A program made the translations under genes and the position numbers. From an uncultured Methylomirabilota bacterium (GTDB lineage: Bacteria > Methylomirabilota > Methylomirabilia > Methylomirabilales > 2-02-FULL-66-22), in contig OY970067.1 in the NCBI GenBank assembly GCA_963705305.1, forward strand, positions 960,001 through 1,024,000: a DNA stretch of 64,000 nt, read 5' to 3'. This document shows positions 1,265 through 9,571 of the stretch, piece after piece. Numbering within the stretch: the first letter of the stretch is position 1; every line of letters starts with the position of its first letter. Under the pieces are notes generated by a model that did no database searches, was not told the origin of the DNA, and saw only the letters and a list, made by a program, of their open reading frames with translations.

Positions 1265-1468
1265 GGGCAACCTCTTCTCGTGATCCCGGCACGGGCGGGC
1301 TACGGCATCAGAAGCTAATGGGTCTTTAGTTCGAGTCCTGTATGGCTCCCCGGGCAGGGCGAATCTGATGCTATGAAAGCGCTGCGCCTCCTGAGCACTG
1401 CAGCGTATGCTGCGGTCGACCCGGGAGGGGGTGCGGGCGGGGTCCCCGCTGAGAGGAGGCGCGCTGCC

Positions 1469-2544
1469 ATGGAGTACATCGCGTTCGATGCCCACAAGCG
1501 GTACACCCAGGTCTCGGTGGAGACGGAGGACGGCCAGCGCCGGTACGAGGGCCGGATCGACCACGTCCGGGGCGCCCTGCAGCAATTCCTCGCGACCCGC
1601 GAGCGGGGTTCGCCGGTGGCGGTCGAGACCGTCGGCACCTGGGACTGGATCGTGGACGAGATCGAAGCGGCCGGCCAGGTCCCGCAGCTGGTCCACGCGC
1701 GCAAGGCGAAGCTCCTGCGCGGCCTGGGGACCAAGACCGACACGCTCGACGCGCGGGGGCGGACCCGGCTGCAGCGGGCCGGGACGCTCCCCACGGTGTG
1801 GATCCCGCCCGGCCCCCTCCGGGATCAGCGGGATCTCCCCCGCACCCGCATGGTCCTCACCCGGGAGCGCACCCGGCTCAAGAATCGGATCCACGCCACC
1901 CTGGCCAAGGACCGGCCTGCGCCTGGAGGGGACGAGCGATCTCTTCGGGCGCCGCGGGCGCCAGTGGCTCCTCACCACCGCCCTCCCCCTGCTGGCGCCG
2001 CACAGTCGGGACCGCCACGGAGCGCCTCCTGGAGCAGCTGGACGTCGTGTCGGCCCAGATCGAGGGCTTCGAGCCGCGCCGGCGCGCGGTCTTTGCGCCC
2101 ACCCCGGAGCTCCAGCTCCTCCGGACGCTCCCCGGGGTCGGGTGGGTGCTGGCCGTGGTCCTCCGCCTGGAGATCGGCGACATCCGCCGCTTCCCGCGCG
2201 CGGCGCAGCTCGCCGCCTATGCCGGCACCACGCCGCGCGTGCACGCCAGCGGGGGCCGCGTCCACTACGGCCAGCTCCGGGTGGACATCACTCGCTACCT
2301 CAAGTGGGCCTTCGTCGAGGCGGCGAGTCCCACCGACCGCACGCGCCCCGCCCGGCCGCACCGCCACGTCCGTTGCCTCTATACGCGCATCCAGCAGCGG
2401 AAGGGGCACGCGACGGCAATCGGCGCGGTCGCGCGCCACTTGGCGGAAGCCACCTATTGGATCCTGACCAAGCGGGAACCGGACCCGCGACCCGGCGGCC
2501 CGCCCGGCGTCGTCCACGGAGGGACCAGCGCGAAGTGCCCATGA
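1469..2544 (+). pseudogene. IS110 transposase (DEDD recombinase), frameshifted
   Basis: [35 protein letters not shown] motifs split over three frames (shifts near 1910 and 2003). Confidence 0.9.
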
Positions 2545-2630
2545 GCGGGAGACGCTCGGAATCTGATTGCGACGTCCCTCCGGGACACCATCATGCCGCG
2601 ATGACGGCGAAGATATGGTTCCGATGACAC
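2520..2630 (+). ncRNA. Putative bridge RNA/seekRNA of IS110 copy 1 (boundaries approximate)
   Basis: AGTGCCCAT 2534-2542 = revcomp of right flank 2800-2808; GAGCG/CGCTC hairpin; GAATCTGAT 2559-2567 = left flank+core 1361-1369. Confidence 0.75.
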
Positions 2631-2924
2631 CGGCACCCGAGGCCCGCAACCCGTAGGGAGGGAGACCGAACCACCCACAACCGCGCGCGGGATCGTCCGC
2701 CGGCCCTGCGCCCCACCTTCGGGCGCGCTGGGCCGAGAGGGGGTTGTGTATCTTCCGATCGGCACTTTATTTGTATTGCCCGGAGCAGCGCTTTCAGATA
2801 TGGGCACTGGGAGGATAGGATTTCGGTGGAGTGAAAGCTAGCCCCGCGATTCAGCCGCGCCGGTTTGCGTGGAGGTCATTGTAGGCTTTGGCTGCGAGTG
2901 CATGTGACGCAGTGTCCGGAGAGT

Positions 2925-3869
2925 TCACGTCGCCGGGTTCCTGCCGATGTACGCGGGTTTGGTTGGCTTCCTTGAGGAGGCGGTCAGCCGCAGCGTGCCA
3001 TACCCTCTCTTCAGAGATAGCTCGCAGTGTTGTCTCGATGCCAGCTTGGAGAATTTCCTCATCTTCTTTCGCCACGCCGGAGCCGCGTAGAGCTTCGCGC
3101 CGATGTAGTGGAATTCGCTCTGAGTCCTGAAAAAGAACCCCGGTTCTCCAGTTAGGCTTGCATAAGGCAGTGTGCTGACGTCGTCAAAGTCCAGCATGAG
3201 GAGATGTTGTTCGGCGTACTGGTTGACTTTGCTATTCAGGCCAAGGACGTAGTCTCTCGCTTCCGAAACGGAGAGGCGCTCACGCGTTTTGATAGCACCG
3301 CTAAGCATGTCGCGGAGGGTGATGTCGGTTATTCGCCCTTTGGGCACCCAGAATGTCAGGCGCGTGTGGTGGTAGTACGACTTTGGGCAGTACACATCAA
3401 AAGAGAAATCACGAATCCGCGGATTGTCCGCGACAAGAAGGTCGAGAATGTGGGCGGTCGAAACGGGGGGAATCTCTTTCCACGCTCTCTCGATGAACAT
3501 CCGAACAAAAGAGATGTGTCTTTGAACGTCCCGCAGGTACGTTGGAACGTACTCGCCATAGTCGGCCTTCTCGCGTTGCTTGTACAGCACACTGAGTAGG
3601 CGACCGTACCGGGGCGGGAAGCCTCGGCGCGTTATCCATTCCTTGCCAAATTGGCCCCTAATGGCGTCGTGGTTCTTTGCGCTGTTTCCGACCAAGCGCA
3701 GCATGGCCACGGCGACATGATGGACGGTGTAGTACAACCGGTTCACAGCTCCGAGACGGGTCTGGCCGCTCGGTGCAAGGGCCTCGGCTTCCGCCAGCGT
3801 GTCAAGCGCCTTCGCCATCCACCAGTGCGCGTGTTCCAGCGATTTGGAGTTGTAGGGCCGTCGCTTCAT
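2925..3869 (-). CDS. HEPN (UPF0332-like) domain fused to a C-terminal AEP/primase-like domain
   Basis: N-term AVNRLYY..H, KNH, REKADY; C-term HLLMLDFD, SEFHYIG, GYGTLRL; lower GC than surroundings. Confidence 0.75.
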   Translation of the reverse strand: MKRRPYNSKSLEHAHWWMAKALDTLAEAEALAPSGQTRLGAVNRLYYTVHHVAVAMLRLVGNSAKNHDAIRGQFGKEWITRRGFPPRYGRLLSVLYKQREKADYGEYVPTYLRDVQRHISFVRMFIERAWKEIPPVSTAHILDLLVADNPRIRDFSFDVYCPKSYYHHTRLTFWVPKGRITDITLRDMLSGAIKTRERLSVSEARDYVLGLNSKVNQYAEQHLLMLDFDDVSTLPYASLTGEPGFFFRTQSEFHYIGAKLYAAPAWRKKMRKFSKLASRQHCELSLKRGYGTLRLTASSRKPTKPAYIGRNPAT

Positions 3870-3958
3870 TTCGGCATCTCCGCGAGAGTCGGCCTTGCTC
3901 GTTATTAGTGCATAGGAGTCCCTGAGCCGCCGGAGGAGAAAGGAAGAAATACTGCGGG

Positions 3959-3987
3959 AGCGTATCGAGGGGGTCGCGGGGTGTCAA
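3959..3987 (-). promoter_or_regulatory. Sigma-70 promoter for the HEPN fusion gene
   Basis: TTGACA-N17-TACGCT on minus strand about 90 nt before the ATG. Confidence 0.6.
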
Positions 3988-4275
3988 TCACATCCGCCCC
4001 CGTTGCAGTAACACGGGGGGCTACGGATACAAGACCGGGGAGGGGGGAGGTCCGGTCCGAGAAAAGGCAGAGTCCCAAGCCAGGGGTGGATCATCGCATC
4101 TTCCCCATCCCTCTTCCCTCTGTACGAATCATAATCATTCAGAAGCACTGGAACCAGGCCGTGCTTCCTGCTATGCTACGCCGGCATTCAGACCATCCAA
4201 TCCACCTGGGCGGCGAGGCACCACGGGCTGCCATCCATCCCACACACCCCGTTGTTGGAGGGAGGAGACACATCC

Positions 4276-4545
4276 ATGCCAACGAATCTCACCGCCACCC
4301 TACGGAAAGCCCTGGCTGAACTGGTAACCGAACAGGCCCGCTTGGACCGGCAGATTGCAGGGATTCGGCAGATTCTCGCAGGAGATGAGCGAGGGCCAGT
4401 TCGGCGTGTCCCCCCCAAGCGGCGAGCCACGGGACGGAAGCCGATGAGTGCCAAGGCCCGGAAGGCGCTGAGCCGGCGGATGAAGGCGTACTGGGCGAAG
4501 CGGAGGGCGGCGGGGATGATGGGCAGCGAGAAGAAAGGCAGGTAG
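4276..4545 (+). CDS. Small basic protein (coiled coil + R/K-rich tail), possible nucleic-acid binder
   Basis: GGAGGAG RBS; MSAKARKALSRRMKAYWAKRR motif. Confidence 0.7.
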   Translation: MPTNLTATLRKALAELVTEQARLDRQIAGIRQILAGDERGPVRRVPPKRRATGRKPMSAKARKALSRRMKAYWAKRRAAGMMGSEKKGR

Positions 4546-4582
4546 CTCGAAACGTCGATTTACACTGGATTGGAGGATTGCC

Positions 4583-5080
4583 ATGAAGAAAGTGAACGAA
4601 TTTGACATCGCCCCACGGATCATGAAGCGCATCGAGGACGGAGCGTTTCTGACCGTCGCGGCTAAAGACCGGCTGAATGTGATGACCATCGGGTGGGGCC
4701 TCGTCGGGGTTCTCTGGCAGCGATCGGTCTTTATGGTCGCCGTGCGCAAGAACCGTCATACCTTCGGGCTGATGGAGGCTGCCGAGAGCTTTACGGTAAG
4801 CGTGCCGACGAAAGACATGCACAAGGAACTTGAATTTTGCGGCTCGATGTCCGGCCGGACGGTCGACAAGCTCAAGGAGTGCAAGCTCGCCACCCGGAAA
4901 GCCCAGAAGGTCAGTTCCCCGGTTTTGGCCATCCCGGGCTACCATTACGAGTGCCAACGTTTGTACAAGAGCGCCCTGGACCCAAAGATGCTGGACAAGG
5001 ATCTCGGTGAGCTCTATCCGAAAAAGGACTACCACACCCTCTATTTTGGGGAGATCGTTGCCTGCTACCAGACCGAATAA
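4583..5080 (+). CDS. Flavin reductase family protein (flavoredoxin-like)
   Basis: NVMTIGWG, AVRKNRHT, FCGSMSGR..DK, HTLYFGEI; GGAGG RBS. Confidence 0.9.
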   Translation: MKKVNEFDIAPRIMKRIEDGAFLTVAAKDRLNVMTIGWGLVGVLWQRSVFMVAVRKNRHTFGLMEAAESFTVSVPTKDMHKELEFCGSMSGRTVDKLKECKLATRKAQKVSSPVLAIPGYHYECQRLYKSALDPKMLDKDLGELYPKKDYHTLYFGEIVACYQTE

Positions 5081-6958: not shown

Positions 6959-9571
6959 TCAGCGGTTCAACATTGCCTCGAGCTTCCGCTTCTCGGCGTT
7001 ATACTCCTGAACGTACCTCGCTCGCATCTTCTGGACTTCTCCGAGGTCCCTGGCGCGGTCCCCAAGCGAGTCGGCGATCTCGGCGTTTGTCTTGTAGATG
7101 TCGATATACTCGAAGCTCTTCATCTCGATTTTGATTGCCGAGAATGCCACTCCGGCGACCACCGACGATTTCGTTGCAACGTCCTCTGCATGAATCCATT
7201 CGGGGCTGTGTCCGATGCTCGGGCCGGGCCGCGGCGCAAACCCCTCTCCCTCCCGAACCCAATCCGGGCTGTTCGGCATCAAGTATTTTCGCACGGTGAT
7301 TGCGTCATCAGCGAGTTCTTGCGCAGTCTTGATCAAACGTTCCGGATCCGACGTGCCCTGCTTGGCTCTCTCGATTTCCTCGAGATACCCGCTCGCCAAT
7401 TCCTTGAGCTTTGCAAGATCCTCGACGGTCTCCAGGAAGTGCTCGGCGTTCCGCCGCTCTTGAGTCATCACCGGCGAATTTGCCCAATCGAGCTTGCGCA
7501 GATTCAGAAGCAGGGAAAAGGCGGTCTCTTTGGCTTCGTCGAGCAGCTCTTGTTTCTTCTGGTCGCTTTGGTCCTTCAGCCTGGTCAGTTCCTGCATAGC
7601 GCCCATCCGCTCTTTCGTTTGAGCGTTGATGATGCGGTCGTAATAACCGAGCATTTCCGCCTTTTGCCGGACCTTTTCAAGCTGGAGCAAGACTTCAACC
7701 GAGTCCGTCTTTTGCGAGAGCTCGCTTTGCCTCAGGCTCACGTATTGGAGCGCCTGCTGGCCTCCTCGGGCCGGGGCAACCCATCCCGGCAGATCGTGCA
7801 CCGGACTCGGCGGCTCGACGATCTTGAGGGTGCGGTACACCTCGCTCAGCTCGGCGTTGGGCTGTTTGAGCGACGGCACGGTCATGTTGACGACCGGTAC
7901 TTCTGGAAGGTCTCCCTTTCGCAGCGTCCACCAGTCTTCCACGCGCATATCGACGCCGCCCGCAGCGGTAATAATCGAGCCGACCGGCCCCGATTTGATC
8001 GCAATGGCCATGTGGATGACCCCCGGATACTCGACAGGAGGATTCCAAGACCCACGGCCTTCGGACGGAAACCGCAACGCGACGCCGCGCTTCTTGAGCC
8101 ACTCCGCAACGGCGATCGTCTTCATGGCTTCACGCATCTGCTGGAGGATCGGATATGCCCCTGCGATTTCATCATAGTGGGCGCTCAGCTCGTCGGCGTA
8201 TTCCTTCAGGAGCGGATCGGCGACGCTCCGACCACCTGAGTATTTTTCGAGATTGAACCTCATCTTGAAGGCGCTAAACCGCATCGCGTTGCCGTCCTGC
8301 GATTCAACGATTTCGATCGCGCCGGTAGAAATCCACGTGTGTCCTTGAGTCGCCGGAGCGCGGTCCTTGGTTCGCCGCCACTCGAAGTAGGTGCGATACT
8401 GCGGTACCGCCTTCTTCAGCTCGGGATTGTCGGGAAGTGATTTGCAGAAGACATCGGCCTCGAAGGCCGTGTGAGCCAAGAGGGACGTTGGGGGAAGCCC
8501 CGTGAACACGGGCCGGACCCGCGGCTCGACGCCGAGAATTTGCTTCATGATCGCCGGGGGAACATGGATTTCGGAGTACTTCCGGAAGAGCTCGTCGTAT
8601 GCGGTTTTGAGCCACGCCTTCTGGTTTGCCGGTGTCACGATCTGGGCGACTGCCTGGTTGAGGGCCTCATCGAAACCGTAGCCTCGTCCCCTCAACATTC
8701 GATATTGCTGAACATAGGCGTCCGCGTTCTGGCCGAACACCCCGGCCACGCCTCCGATGTAGAGCGGCATGGCCGTATCCATCAGTTGCGCCTGCGAGAT
8801 TTCACCCGCCCTATATCGCCGGGCAGCGTCCGCGATGGCATCGTAGATGCCCAGAACGCGCGTCAAATCCTCGAATTCCTGCCGGCCCGATTCCCCTCGA
8901 TTCAGAGCCTCGTCGCGTGCCCCGATCAACGCGATGGCCCGAGCTTCCTTCGTGCGGCCCAGGGCCGCGAAGACCTGGCTGTTGGCCTCGTAACGGGTCA
9001 TGCCCGCCCTGACCTGCGCCCCTCCCTGACTGAGCCACCATTCGCCGATGGGGGTCAGTCGTCCGTTCGAATCGAAGATATTCGCGAGCCTGTCAACCAA
9101 TTCGCTATCCGGCATCTGCAGGGCGCGATCTACCTGTCGCTCGGAGGCGGCTGTCCATTCCAGGCTGAATATCGGCGACTGGCTTTCCATGCCGGTTGCC
9201 AGATAATCGAGATAGGGAACCGGCAGGACGGCATTGCTGTTCTGCTTATGACCGAACAAGGAGACTGTGCCGGTCACGGGGTCAACCGTTGCCCCATCCA
9301 GCGAATCGAAATCAATGAGAGCTTGCAGGCTATAGACTCCCAATAACGGCTGCGTGATAGAGATGGTGGGGGTAGCCGCCCAGCCCGTCGCGGCGGGAGA
9401 AGGGCCGCTCTCCGGCCCCTGCGCAAATGGCCTCTTTTTCGCAAGTCGGCTTGGTCCAGCATCAAATGAACTCCCCGGACGCTTCATGGCCTGGCCGTCG
9501 AACTGCACACAGGCGCCCATGAAACCCACTGCCAGCAGCATGAGAGCCAATTGCATCGCAATCTTTCTCAT
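6959..9571 (-). CDS. Large putative lipoprotein, DUF1598-like core and C-terminal coiled coil
   Basis: 870-aa ORF; lipobox-like FMGA-C; GLPPTSLLAHTAFEADVFCKSL resembles DUF1598 (by eye); helical C-terminus. Confidence 0.7.
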   Translation of the reverse strand: MRKIAMQLALMLLAVGFMGACVQFDGQAMKRPGSSFDAGPSRLAKKRPFAQGPESGPSPAATGWAATPTISITQPLLGVYSLQALIDFDSLDGATVDPVTGTVSLFGHKQNSNAVLPVPYLDYLATGMESQSPIFSLEWTAASERQVDRALQMPDSELVDRLANIFDSNGRLTPIGEWWLSQGGAQVRAGMTRYEANSQVFAALGRTKEARAIALIGARDEALNRGESGRQEFEDLTRVLGIYDAIADAARRYRAGEISQAQLMDTAMPLYIGGVAGVFGQNADAYVQQYRMLRGRGYGFDEALNQAVAQIVTPANQKAWLKTAYDELFRKYSEIHVPPAIMKQILGVEPRVRPVFTGLPPTSLLAHTAFEADVFCKSLPDNPELKKAVPQYRTYFEWRRTKDRAPATQGHTWISTGAIEIVESQDGNAMRFSAFKMRFNLEKYSGGRSVADPLLKEYADELSAHYDEIAGAYPILQQMREAMKTIAVAEWLKKRGVALRFPSEGRGSWNPPVEYPGVIHMAIAIKSGPVGSIITAAGGVDMRVEDWWTLRKGDLPEVPVVNMTVPSLKQPNAELSEVYRTLKIVEPPSPVHDLPGWVAPARGGQQALQYVSLRQSELSQKTDSVEVLLQLEKVRQKAEMLGYYDRIINAQTKERMGAMQELTRLKDQSDQKKQELLDEAKETAFSLLLNLRKLDWANSPVMTQERRNAEHFLETVEDLAKLKELASGYLEEIERAKQGTSDPERLIKTAQELADDAITVRKYLMPNSPDWVREGEGFAPRPGPSIGHSPEWIHAEDVATKSSVVAGVAFSAIKIEMKSFEYIDIYKTNAEIADSLGDRARDLGEVQKMRARYVQEYNAEKRKLEAMLNR

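Follow-up and report, generated by a model that had tools for sequence, protein, structure and literature searches.

A HEPN domain joined to an archaeo-eukaryotic primase-fold domain in a Methylomirabilota genome, a candidate one-gene phage-defense module

The stretch of DNA analyzed here (the window; 64,000 nt, positions 960,001 to 1,024,000 of contig OY970067.1, assembly GCA_963705305.1) comes from an uncultured Methylomirabilota bacterium and contains a gene whose 314-residue product joins an N-terminal HEPN domain to a C-terminal domain with the fold of archaeo-eukaryotic primases (AEP). With moderate confidence, we read this HEPN-AEP protein as a one-gene defense or abortive-infection module that is dimerized by its HEPN part and belongs to a family at home in defense islands. 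The primase-fold domain would handle a nucleotide or single-stranded DNA, either as a sensor or as a synthetase of a small product, and the HEPN domain, which is of the AF0298 type and keeps the residues R44, Y46, H67, R99, D103, and Y104 of the family site, would act as an RNA-directed effector or as the regulated partner. The two folds, the conserved residues, and the family with its genomic neighbors and sporadic occurrence are observed, whereas the role in defense, the dimer, the choice between sensing and synthesis, and any RNase activity are inferred.

The first-pass annotation, made from the sequence alone, had proposed that a HEPN domain is fused to an AEP-like domain, with the boundary placed near residue 135, and both proposals were borne out. 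The AlphaFold2 model, made from 35 aligned sequences (pLDDT 91.3, pTM 0.82), shows five helices up to residue 132 followed by an alpha/beta domain, with the boundary at 135/136. Pfam recognizes HEPN (PF05168) on residues 15-128 with 41.3 bits (cut-off 22; E 2e-10). In a structure search with VIA-align, covering 48,161 chains, residues 8-135 matched AF0298 (2hsb; Z 18.0, 124 aligned residues, root-mean-square deviation 2.1), as well as 1ufb (Z 14.8) and the HEPN domain of sacsin (Z 13.8). The AF0298 HEPN was also retrieved from PDB by Foldseek (2hsb, TM on target 0.84), and a PDB sequence search with the whole protein found HEPN proteins only (9xbd at E 3e-4, 2hsb weakly).

The query carries the full HEPN signature, formed by N43, R44, Y46, Y47, H67, R99, D103, and Y104. 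Among 97 stand-alone relatives these residues are conserved at 0.70, 0.91, 0.97, 0.97, 0.98, 0.98, 0.98, and 0.97, respectively, and Y46, H67, R99, and Y104 are kept at 0.93-0.97 in both clades of fusion proteins. According to the available text of Anantharaman et al. (2013; PMC3710099), the AF0298-type HEPN-T domains keep the Arg of the Rx4-6H motif, lack its His, and have a second conserved His further toward the N-terminus, for which an alternative active-site role was proposed. The query fits this definition, with the Arg present and the His absent in the Rx4-6H slot and with H67 located upstream.

The C-terminal half, for which a check by AlphaFold and Foldseek had been suggested in the first-pass annotation, has the AEP fold. 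Both structure searches matched it to the primase RepB': Foldseek against PDB returned its catalytic domain (3h25, prob 0.99, TM 0.53), and VIA-align aligned 151 of residues 136-314 with 3h20 (Z 11.6, root-mean-square deviation 3.1). Further VIA-align matches include the S-2L PrimPol (6zp9, Z 10.8), PriS of Pyrococcus (1v33, Z 7.9) and Sulfolobus (1zt2, Z 7.7), and human PRIM1 (Z 7.7), and a fold search of BFVD yielded weak rows only (E 2e-3 or worse), RepB-type and AE_Prim_S-like primases among them. The Pfam family PF24387 ("AEP-like, Archaeo-eukaryotic primase 1D-like") scores 17.9 bits on query residues 206-301, below its cut-off of 27. This cut-off is passed by the relatives P0169 (59.5 bits), P0218 (57.7), P0112 (39.9), P0097 (37.1), and P0102 (35.3), all of which align to the C-terminal half of the query with E-values of 1e-7 to 1e-27, and the domain thus belongs to the PF24387 lineage by transitive homology. 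Since a profile of the C-terminal domain found nothing significant among PDB sequences (best E 0.22), the link to AEPs rests on structure and Pfam.

Conservation in the AEP domain was counted over the ungapped rows of 169 distinct C-terminal domains. Motif I and the histidine of motif II are nearly invariant (Table 1), as are W266 (150/150), R288 (147/149), R294 (149/149), and K301 (148/149), and a family-specific motif ahead of the core, D158-x-Y-C-P-x-x-Y-x-H167-x-x-R170, is equally conserved. The catalytic residues of RepB' are D77, D78, D134, and R145, and the replacement D134A abolishes primer synthesis, as described in the available text of PMC8567376. The spacings between D78, D134, and R145 are 56 and 11 in RepB', and the equivalent spacings are 55 and 10 in the Asp-bearing clade of the family, which has six extra residues before column 278. 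Because the spacings to DxD and R288 match those of RepB', we infer that column 278 corresponds to motif III. The query has S278 where 75 other rows carry Asp, and the remaining active-site residues are kept at 0.97-1.00 in its Ser clade. The first-pass annotation, in which no third acidic residue was evident at ASRQH, was right on this point: the column holds Asp in every other branch and Ser in the clade of the query only. Since the motif III Asp is replaced, we class the domain as an AEP-fold homologue and not as an active primase; for the Ser-clade copy, binding of metal-nucleotide or DNA, or some reduced chemistry, is more likely than primer synthesis.

In a quick maximum-likelihood tree of the C-terminal domains, the Ser rows, 70 in number, all fall into a single clade (SH-aLRT 100; its stem has a length of 1.18), and the 7 rows of forms fused to the DNA polymerase DnaE make up a separate clade with a support of 100. 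HEPN fusions that carry the Asp are spread along the unresolved backbone. As every Ser row is placed in one clade, the tree indicates that the third carboxylate was lost once, in the clade of the query. A migrated catalytic carboxylate was considered at E242, which is fully conserved (1.00) in this clade and has no acidic counterpart outside it, columns 242 and 278 covarying accordingly (Glu with Ser in 71 rows, a non-acidic residue with Asp in 75). We do not count E242 as compensation, since the Ser/Glu rows are all in one clade and represent a single event; by the strand topology, which resembles that of an RNA recognition motif, E242 probably lies far from DxD, at the opposite edge of the sheet.

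Table 1. Features of the HEPN-AEP gene and the flanking transposase, in window positions
Feature	Position	Strand	Basis
HEPN-AEP fusion gene, 314 aa	2925..3869	-	Open reading frame list and translation; stop codon 2925-2927
HEPN domain, residues 8-135, AF0298/UPF0332 type	3465..3848	-	PF05168, 2hsb/1ufb folds, full signature
H67, second conserved His, proposed alternative active-site residue	3669..3671	-	0.97/0.94 in the two fusion clades
R99-E-K-A-D103-Y104, Rx4-6H slot in the AF0298-type form RxxxDY	3558..3575	-	R99 0.97/0.96, Y104 0.97/0.94 in both clades of fusions
Domain with the AEP (primase) fold, residues 136-314, of the PF24387 lineage	2928..3464	-	Structure matches; PF24387 weak, passed by homologues
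AEP motif I, D227-F-D229	3183..3191	-	D227 153/154, D229 153/154 ungapped rows
AEP motif II histidine, H254	3108..3110	-	147/149 ungapped rows
S278, position of motif III (third catalytic Asp)	3036..3038	-	Column: D 75 rows, S 71, C 2, P 1
IS110-family transposase, context only	1373..2544	+	DEDD_Tnp_IS110 in frame 1373-2467, Transposase_20 in frame 1798-2544

The start codon of the gene was set by N-terminal alignment with 34 relatives, and the span to 3987 given in the first-pass annotation comprises the open reading frame (ORF) and 118 nt of upstream DNA. The motifs quoted there were located at residues 43-47 (NRLYY), 65-67 (KNH), 99-104 (REKADY), 224-229 (LMLDFD), 251-257 (SEFHYIG), 277-281 (ASRQH), and 289-295 (GYGTLRL).

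The fusion is not a singleton, a case that the first-pass annotation had allowed for, and forms a conserved family of about 140 distinct relatives from several phyla that are 27-68% identical to the query. A word-index search yielded 77 proteins, including 55 clusters (P0003-P0057) of 297-343 aa that share 50-68% identity over 86-99% of the query. No other Pfam family was found on these 55 full-length close relatives; the sources annotate relatives just as "HEPN domain-containing protein" or "UPF0332 family" and name as organisms Bacteroidota, Chloroflexi, Polyangia metagenome-assembled genomes (MAGs), and Leptospira levettii. An exhaustive search of representatives gave 496 matches at E <= 0.001 (14 at E <= 1e-30). 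Besides the close clade, they include another group of HEPN-AEP proteins, likewise full-length (27-34% identity), and stand-alone HEPN proteins of about 130 aa. Some matches cover only residues ~140-308 and correspond either to stand-alone proteins of ~190-210 aa or to the C-termini of proteins of 900-1070 aa, the latter being DnaE-type polymerases by Pfam (PHP, DNA_pol3_alpha, finger, HHH_6, and AEP-like domains). The DnaE-AEP fusions form ten clusters, all metagenomic (P0095, P0100, P0102, P0104, and P0225-P0230), and hint at a possible self-priming C-family polymerase. The word-index search found no longer fusions of the C-terminal domain, a weak negative, since the representative search did find the DnaE fusions.

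The family is horizontally scattered, and its distribution is sporadic. Matches were observed in 23 of 60 related genomes, all ending by profile position 136 and thus covering HEPN only, and the C-terminal domain was found in none of the 60. Across 251 genomes of the phylum, the host genome alone matches the C-terminal domain; the PF24387 model has no match anywhere in the phylum, the host genome included, since the query scores below its threshold. A single-protein search of genome contigs gave just one locus, L001 (8001-8684), which belongs to a Verrucomicrobia MAG. The copy there corresponds to residues 84-311 of a family member and is probably truncated; it is flanked by an AbiU/AIPR gene and a deoxynucleoside kinase gene, beside JetC/JetD-like Wadjet genes.

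The reading as a defense module draws only on the genomic company of the family. Members were found in 66 metagenome loci, of which the 29 longest were ORF-called and four near-duplicates dropped, leaving 25 non-redundant loci; 150 neighboring ORFs were scanned with Pfam, and 42 of them with PADLOC. A recognized defense gene directly adjoins the fusion in 12 of the 25 loci (L001, L014, L017, L020, L026, L042, L046, L052, L057, L063, L065, and L066) and is found within two ORFs in 15, with L018, L030, and L054 added. Three more loci (L049, L068, and L069) have toxin-antitoxin modules or WYL regulators near the fusion, and the remaining seven (L022, L025, L029, L034, L043, L061, and L079) have nothing close. 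An ABC-type ATPase is the next-door neighbor in 11 of the 25 loci, namely Old or an Old-like protein in five (Old in L014, L046, L052, and L066; Old/AriA-like in L063), PDC-S06 (AAA_13) in four (L020, L030, L042, and L065), and a LmuB-like protein with a PIN protein in two (L017 and L057). This placement could reflect either co-residence in islands or functional pairing. In L026 the fusion gene is inserted into a type I restriction-modification (RM) operon, between HsdS/Schlafen genes and HsdR, and L054 has a type IIG RM neighbor; other defense neighbors among the 25 loci are AbiU, PDC-S19, PDC-S14, PDC-S37/Hhe, and a DrmD-like protein with RmuC. No partner gene recurs across the 25 loci, and because none is conserved, the fusion looks like a single-gene module.

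Modeling predicts that the protein forms a homodimer through its HEPN domain. Folding of two copies with the family alignment gave an ipSAE of 0.55, against 0.00 for the best of three controls, a mark that 20 of 30 solved one-chain pairs reached, but just 1 of 23 single chains; the runs agreed in at least 92% of contacts, with a partner pLDDT of at least 82. Since HEPN dimers have already been solved, this pass may reflect likeness to them. The modeled interface is formed between the HEPN domains by residues 20-44 and 102-112, including the RxxxDY loop, and a modeled contact in trans brings HEPN loop 34-39 to residues 230-233 and 250-251 of the other chain, beside DxD and H254. It is conceivable, if doubtful, that the protein is a primase fold turned infection sensor that switches on the RNase of its partner HEPN and so provides abortive infection from a single gene. 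The Ser-clade domain, deprived of its third catalytic Asp but with its residues for binding metal, nucleotide, and DNA kept, would then read phage replication intermediates (single-stranded DNA, primer-template, or the state of the deoxynucleoside triphosphates) within the HEPN-held homodimer, and the contact in trans from the rim of its active site to the HEPN loop of the partner would activate the AF0298-type RNase. If true, this would be a new sensing principle and the first activity assigned to this large HEPN class outside its pairs with minimal nucleotidyltransferases (MNTs).

These pairs are the basis of a different proposal, put forward in the first-pass annotation, in which the AEP domain replaces MNT and nucleotidylates HEPN, e.g., at Tyr104 of RxxxDY, within one chain or from one subunit to the other, silencing a toxic RNase in the manner of a single-chain type VII-like toxin-antitoxin system. 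The pairing of this HEPN class with MNT, stated in that annotation, does occur in the relatives of the host: in four of nine loci with stand-alone HEPNs of the same class (L005, L007, L010, and L011), an NTP_transf_2 ORF ends at the HEPN start, as found by scanning 20 of 43 called ORFs, with the five other loci lying beyond the crude ORF calls. Classic AF0298-type MNT-HEPN pairs are thus common among these relatives, with up to three HEPN matches per genome. The fusion itself has no MNT nearby: as the first-pass annotation had noted, the ORFs flanking the gene in the window have no NTP_transf_2 match in Pfam, and no MNT directly adjoins the fusion in the 25 metagenome loci (L068 has a separate MNT-HepT pair about 3 kb away). 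Nucleotidylation would also be in keeping with the conservation of Y104 in both fusion clades (Table 1) and with the model, in which residues by the AEP metal site touch the HEPN of the other chain, and loss of the third Asp could suit the transfer of a single nucleotide over polymerization. However, Y104 and D103 are equally conserved in the 97 stand-alone HEPNs and are therefore a family trait, not specific to the fusion, and the modeled contact reaches loop 34-39, not Y104. The other AEP architectures are stand-alone or DnaE-fused, which points to DNA priming rather than protein modification, and we know of no AEP that nucleotidylates a protein. We consider this replacement of MNT, which no result supported as a functional claim, unlikely.

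DNA priming is central to another reading, in which the protein is a genuine primase of an unrecognized mobile element and the HEPN bundle is a helper domain for synthesis of the first dinucleotide. Both RepB' and the pRN1 primase depend on a helical bundle domain to form the dinucleotide (available texts of PMC8567376 and PMC2965215), the closest relatives of the C-terminal domain are fused to C-family DNA polymerases, and an insertion sequence (IS) adjoins the gene. Stand-alone PF24387 clusters in the ESM Atlas are partly placed in viruses (scores 0.96-0.97), which also agrees with a mobile origin and is a lead on the ancestry of the domain, not on that of the HEPN-AEP fusion. Nevertheless, none of 72,556 plasmids and none of 50,697 phages was matched by P0001 in tblastn, the stand-alone protein P0169 likewise matched no phage, and two family patterns had no match in IMG/VR. 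The DnaE-AEP protein P0102 matched six IMG/VR loci, all of them in the polymerase part only, up to residue 832, and PHROGs left the AEP part of eight more AEP-like relatives unmatched. Moreover, the 25 loci have no recurrent partner of the replicative helicase, integrase, or origin-like kind, some members are located within RM operons, HEPN retains the complete toxin-type family signature, and the third catalytic Asp is lost in the clade of the query. We consider such a mobile-element primase quite unlikely.

The surroundings of the gene in the host genome bear on the reading that it is a functionless passenger, i.e., an IS-associated relic of recent transfer that merely happens to be intact and has no role for the host. 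The gene is solitary, differs in GC content from its flanks (about 0.57 vs. about 0.64), is the sole copy among the 251 genomes of the phylum, and lies beside a split IS110 element, whose transposase is located downstream and is broken across two overlapping frames. A 15-nt inverted repeat (1374-1388 and 2782-2796) may mark the ends of this IS110. No site was found when 2500-4600 was scanned for the sigma-70 consensus, which is likewise compatible with a relic; the own promoter assigned to the gene by the first-pass annotation was thus not recovered, and promoters of other types are left possible. Against decay, the reading frame is intact over 314 codons and the family-invariant residues are all present, and we regard a mere passenger as very unlikely. 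No Rfam match was found in 2400-4700, a synteny comparison with five same-genus genomes gave no collinear block, and a search for repeats marking island borders gave nothing convincing. Of the sequencing runs listed as containing the sequence, none was an RNA run, and the DNA runs held small shares only.

Several observations weigh against the defense reading that we prefer. We know of no RNase activity for AF0298-type HEPNs. The adjacency figures for the metagenome loci are raw counts on crude ORF calls, taken without a background control. The host locus is no defense island: 34 neighboring ORFs have no meaningful PADLOC match, the sole one being a receiver domain (E 2.6e-6), and the neighbors identified by Pfam look housekeeping-like. 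The one-gene anti-phage system proposed in the first-pass annotation thus agrees with the island setting of the family but not with the locus in which the gene was found. The query has no match in NCBIfam, PHROGs, or PADLOC v2.0.0 (0 families at E up to 10). The clade of the query has lost the motif III Asp, the residue whose replacement in RepB' leaves the enzyme dead for primer synthesis (PMC8567376), and the HEPN of AbiA, an anti-phage protein of Lactococcus, is described as enzymatically inactive in the available text of PMC11077055. A role as an RNA-directed effector is still likely for the HEPN considered here, since it retains, unlike that of AbiA, the full conserved site of its family.

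Both halves of the protein are known building blocks, and no description of a HEPN-AEP fusion was found in the searched literature; the same search found no paper on PF24387. As a new phage-defense module made of one gene, the HEPN-AEP family is a strong candidate. If it does protect against phages, it would add a primase fold to the nucleic-acid-synthesizing defense systems (AbiA/AbiK, DRTs, and PrimPol-RT) and open a way to study the AF0298-type HEPNs, whose biochemistry is obscure. The split between the Asp and Ser clades amounts to a natural test of whether the protein must synthesize or need only bind.

The upstream neighbors of the gene are a small basic ORF, a flavin reductase, a zinc ribbon protein, and a cupin. 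Directly upstream, at about 3950-4065, lies a dispersed intergenic repeat of 60-100 nt with at least nine more copies in the same genome (74-97% identity), further copies in a same-genus genome, and no Rfam match. A very basic ORF of 97 aa (4252-4545, plus strand, within the region 4085-4545) belongs to no Pfam family; the region upstream of it has three more copies in the genome (72-80% identity), and its 3' part (4443-4525) is repeated many times in a related genome. Because these parts recur, the ORF looks like a member of a multi-copy small gene family. An 870-aa ORF (6959-9571, minus strand) has a signal-like N-terminal stretch and belongs to no Pfam or PADLOC family.

Among known systems, the AF0298/UPF0332 HEPNs (PF05168, HEPN-T) share with the query the fold and the signature NRxYY, H67, and RxxxDY without the slot His; they are usually encoded by the second gene of MNT-HEPN pairs, whereas the query has no MNT and is covalently joined to a primase fold. 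With PF24387 proteins, RepB' of RSF1010, and the PrimPol of cyanophage S-2L, the query has in common the fold, DxD, the His, and an Arg 10 residues after motif III. It differs from them in scoring below the Pfam cut-off, in the Ser of motif III, in lacking a helix-bundle domain of the RepB' type, and in carrying the DxYCPxxYxHxxR motif ahead of the core. AEP domains have been recruited into anti-phage proteins, e.g., the PrimPol-reverse transcriptase (RT) fusion "PPRT"/DRT7-UG10 (available text of PMC12439943), but PrimPol-RT and AEP-TOTE represent other AEP families, with RT or superfamily 2 helicase partners and without HEPN. AbiA is a single-gene anti-phage protein composed of an RT-like polymerase, a helical domain, and HEPN, the last of which mediates its dimer and is needed for polymerase activity (available text of PMC11077055). 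It resembles the query in combining a polymerase-type domain and HEPN in one polypeptide, and its HEPN is a structural match (8oz7, Z 8.5). The likeness is one of architecture alone, with no sequence relationship: AbiA has an RT-like fold and a C-terminal HEPN without catalytic residues, whereas the query, on which Pfam finds no RT family, has an AEP fold and an N-terminal HEPN with the family site kept. The type VII HepT-MNT systems (SO_3166/SO_3165, Aphanizomenon HEPN-MNT) likewise couple HEPN to a nucleotidyltransferase, and HepT-type structures match the HEPN of the query (5yep, Z 10.0; 8xdj, Z 9.7; 7ae2, Z 9.2), but their transferase is a separate protein of the Pol-beta fold and their HEPN is of the DUF86 type with RX4HXY, as opposed to an AEP in cis and a PF05168-type HEPN. 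As a defense module, the HEPN-AEP protein may thus be viewed as an analogue of both AbiA, with its polymerase and HEPN in one chain, and the MNT-HEPN pairs.

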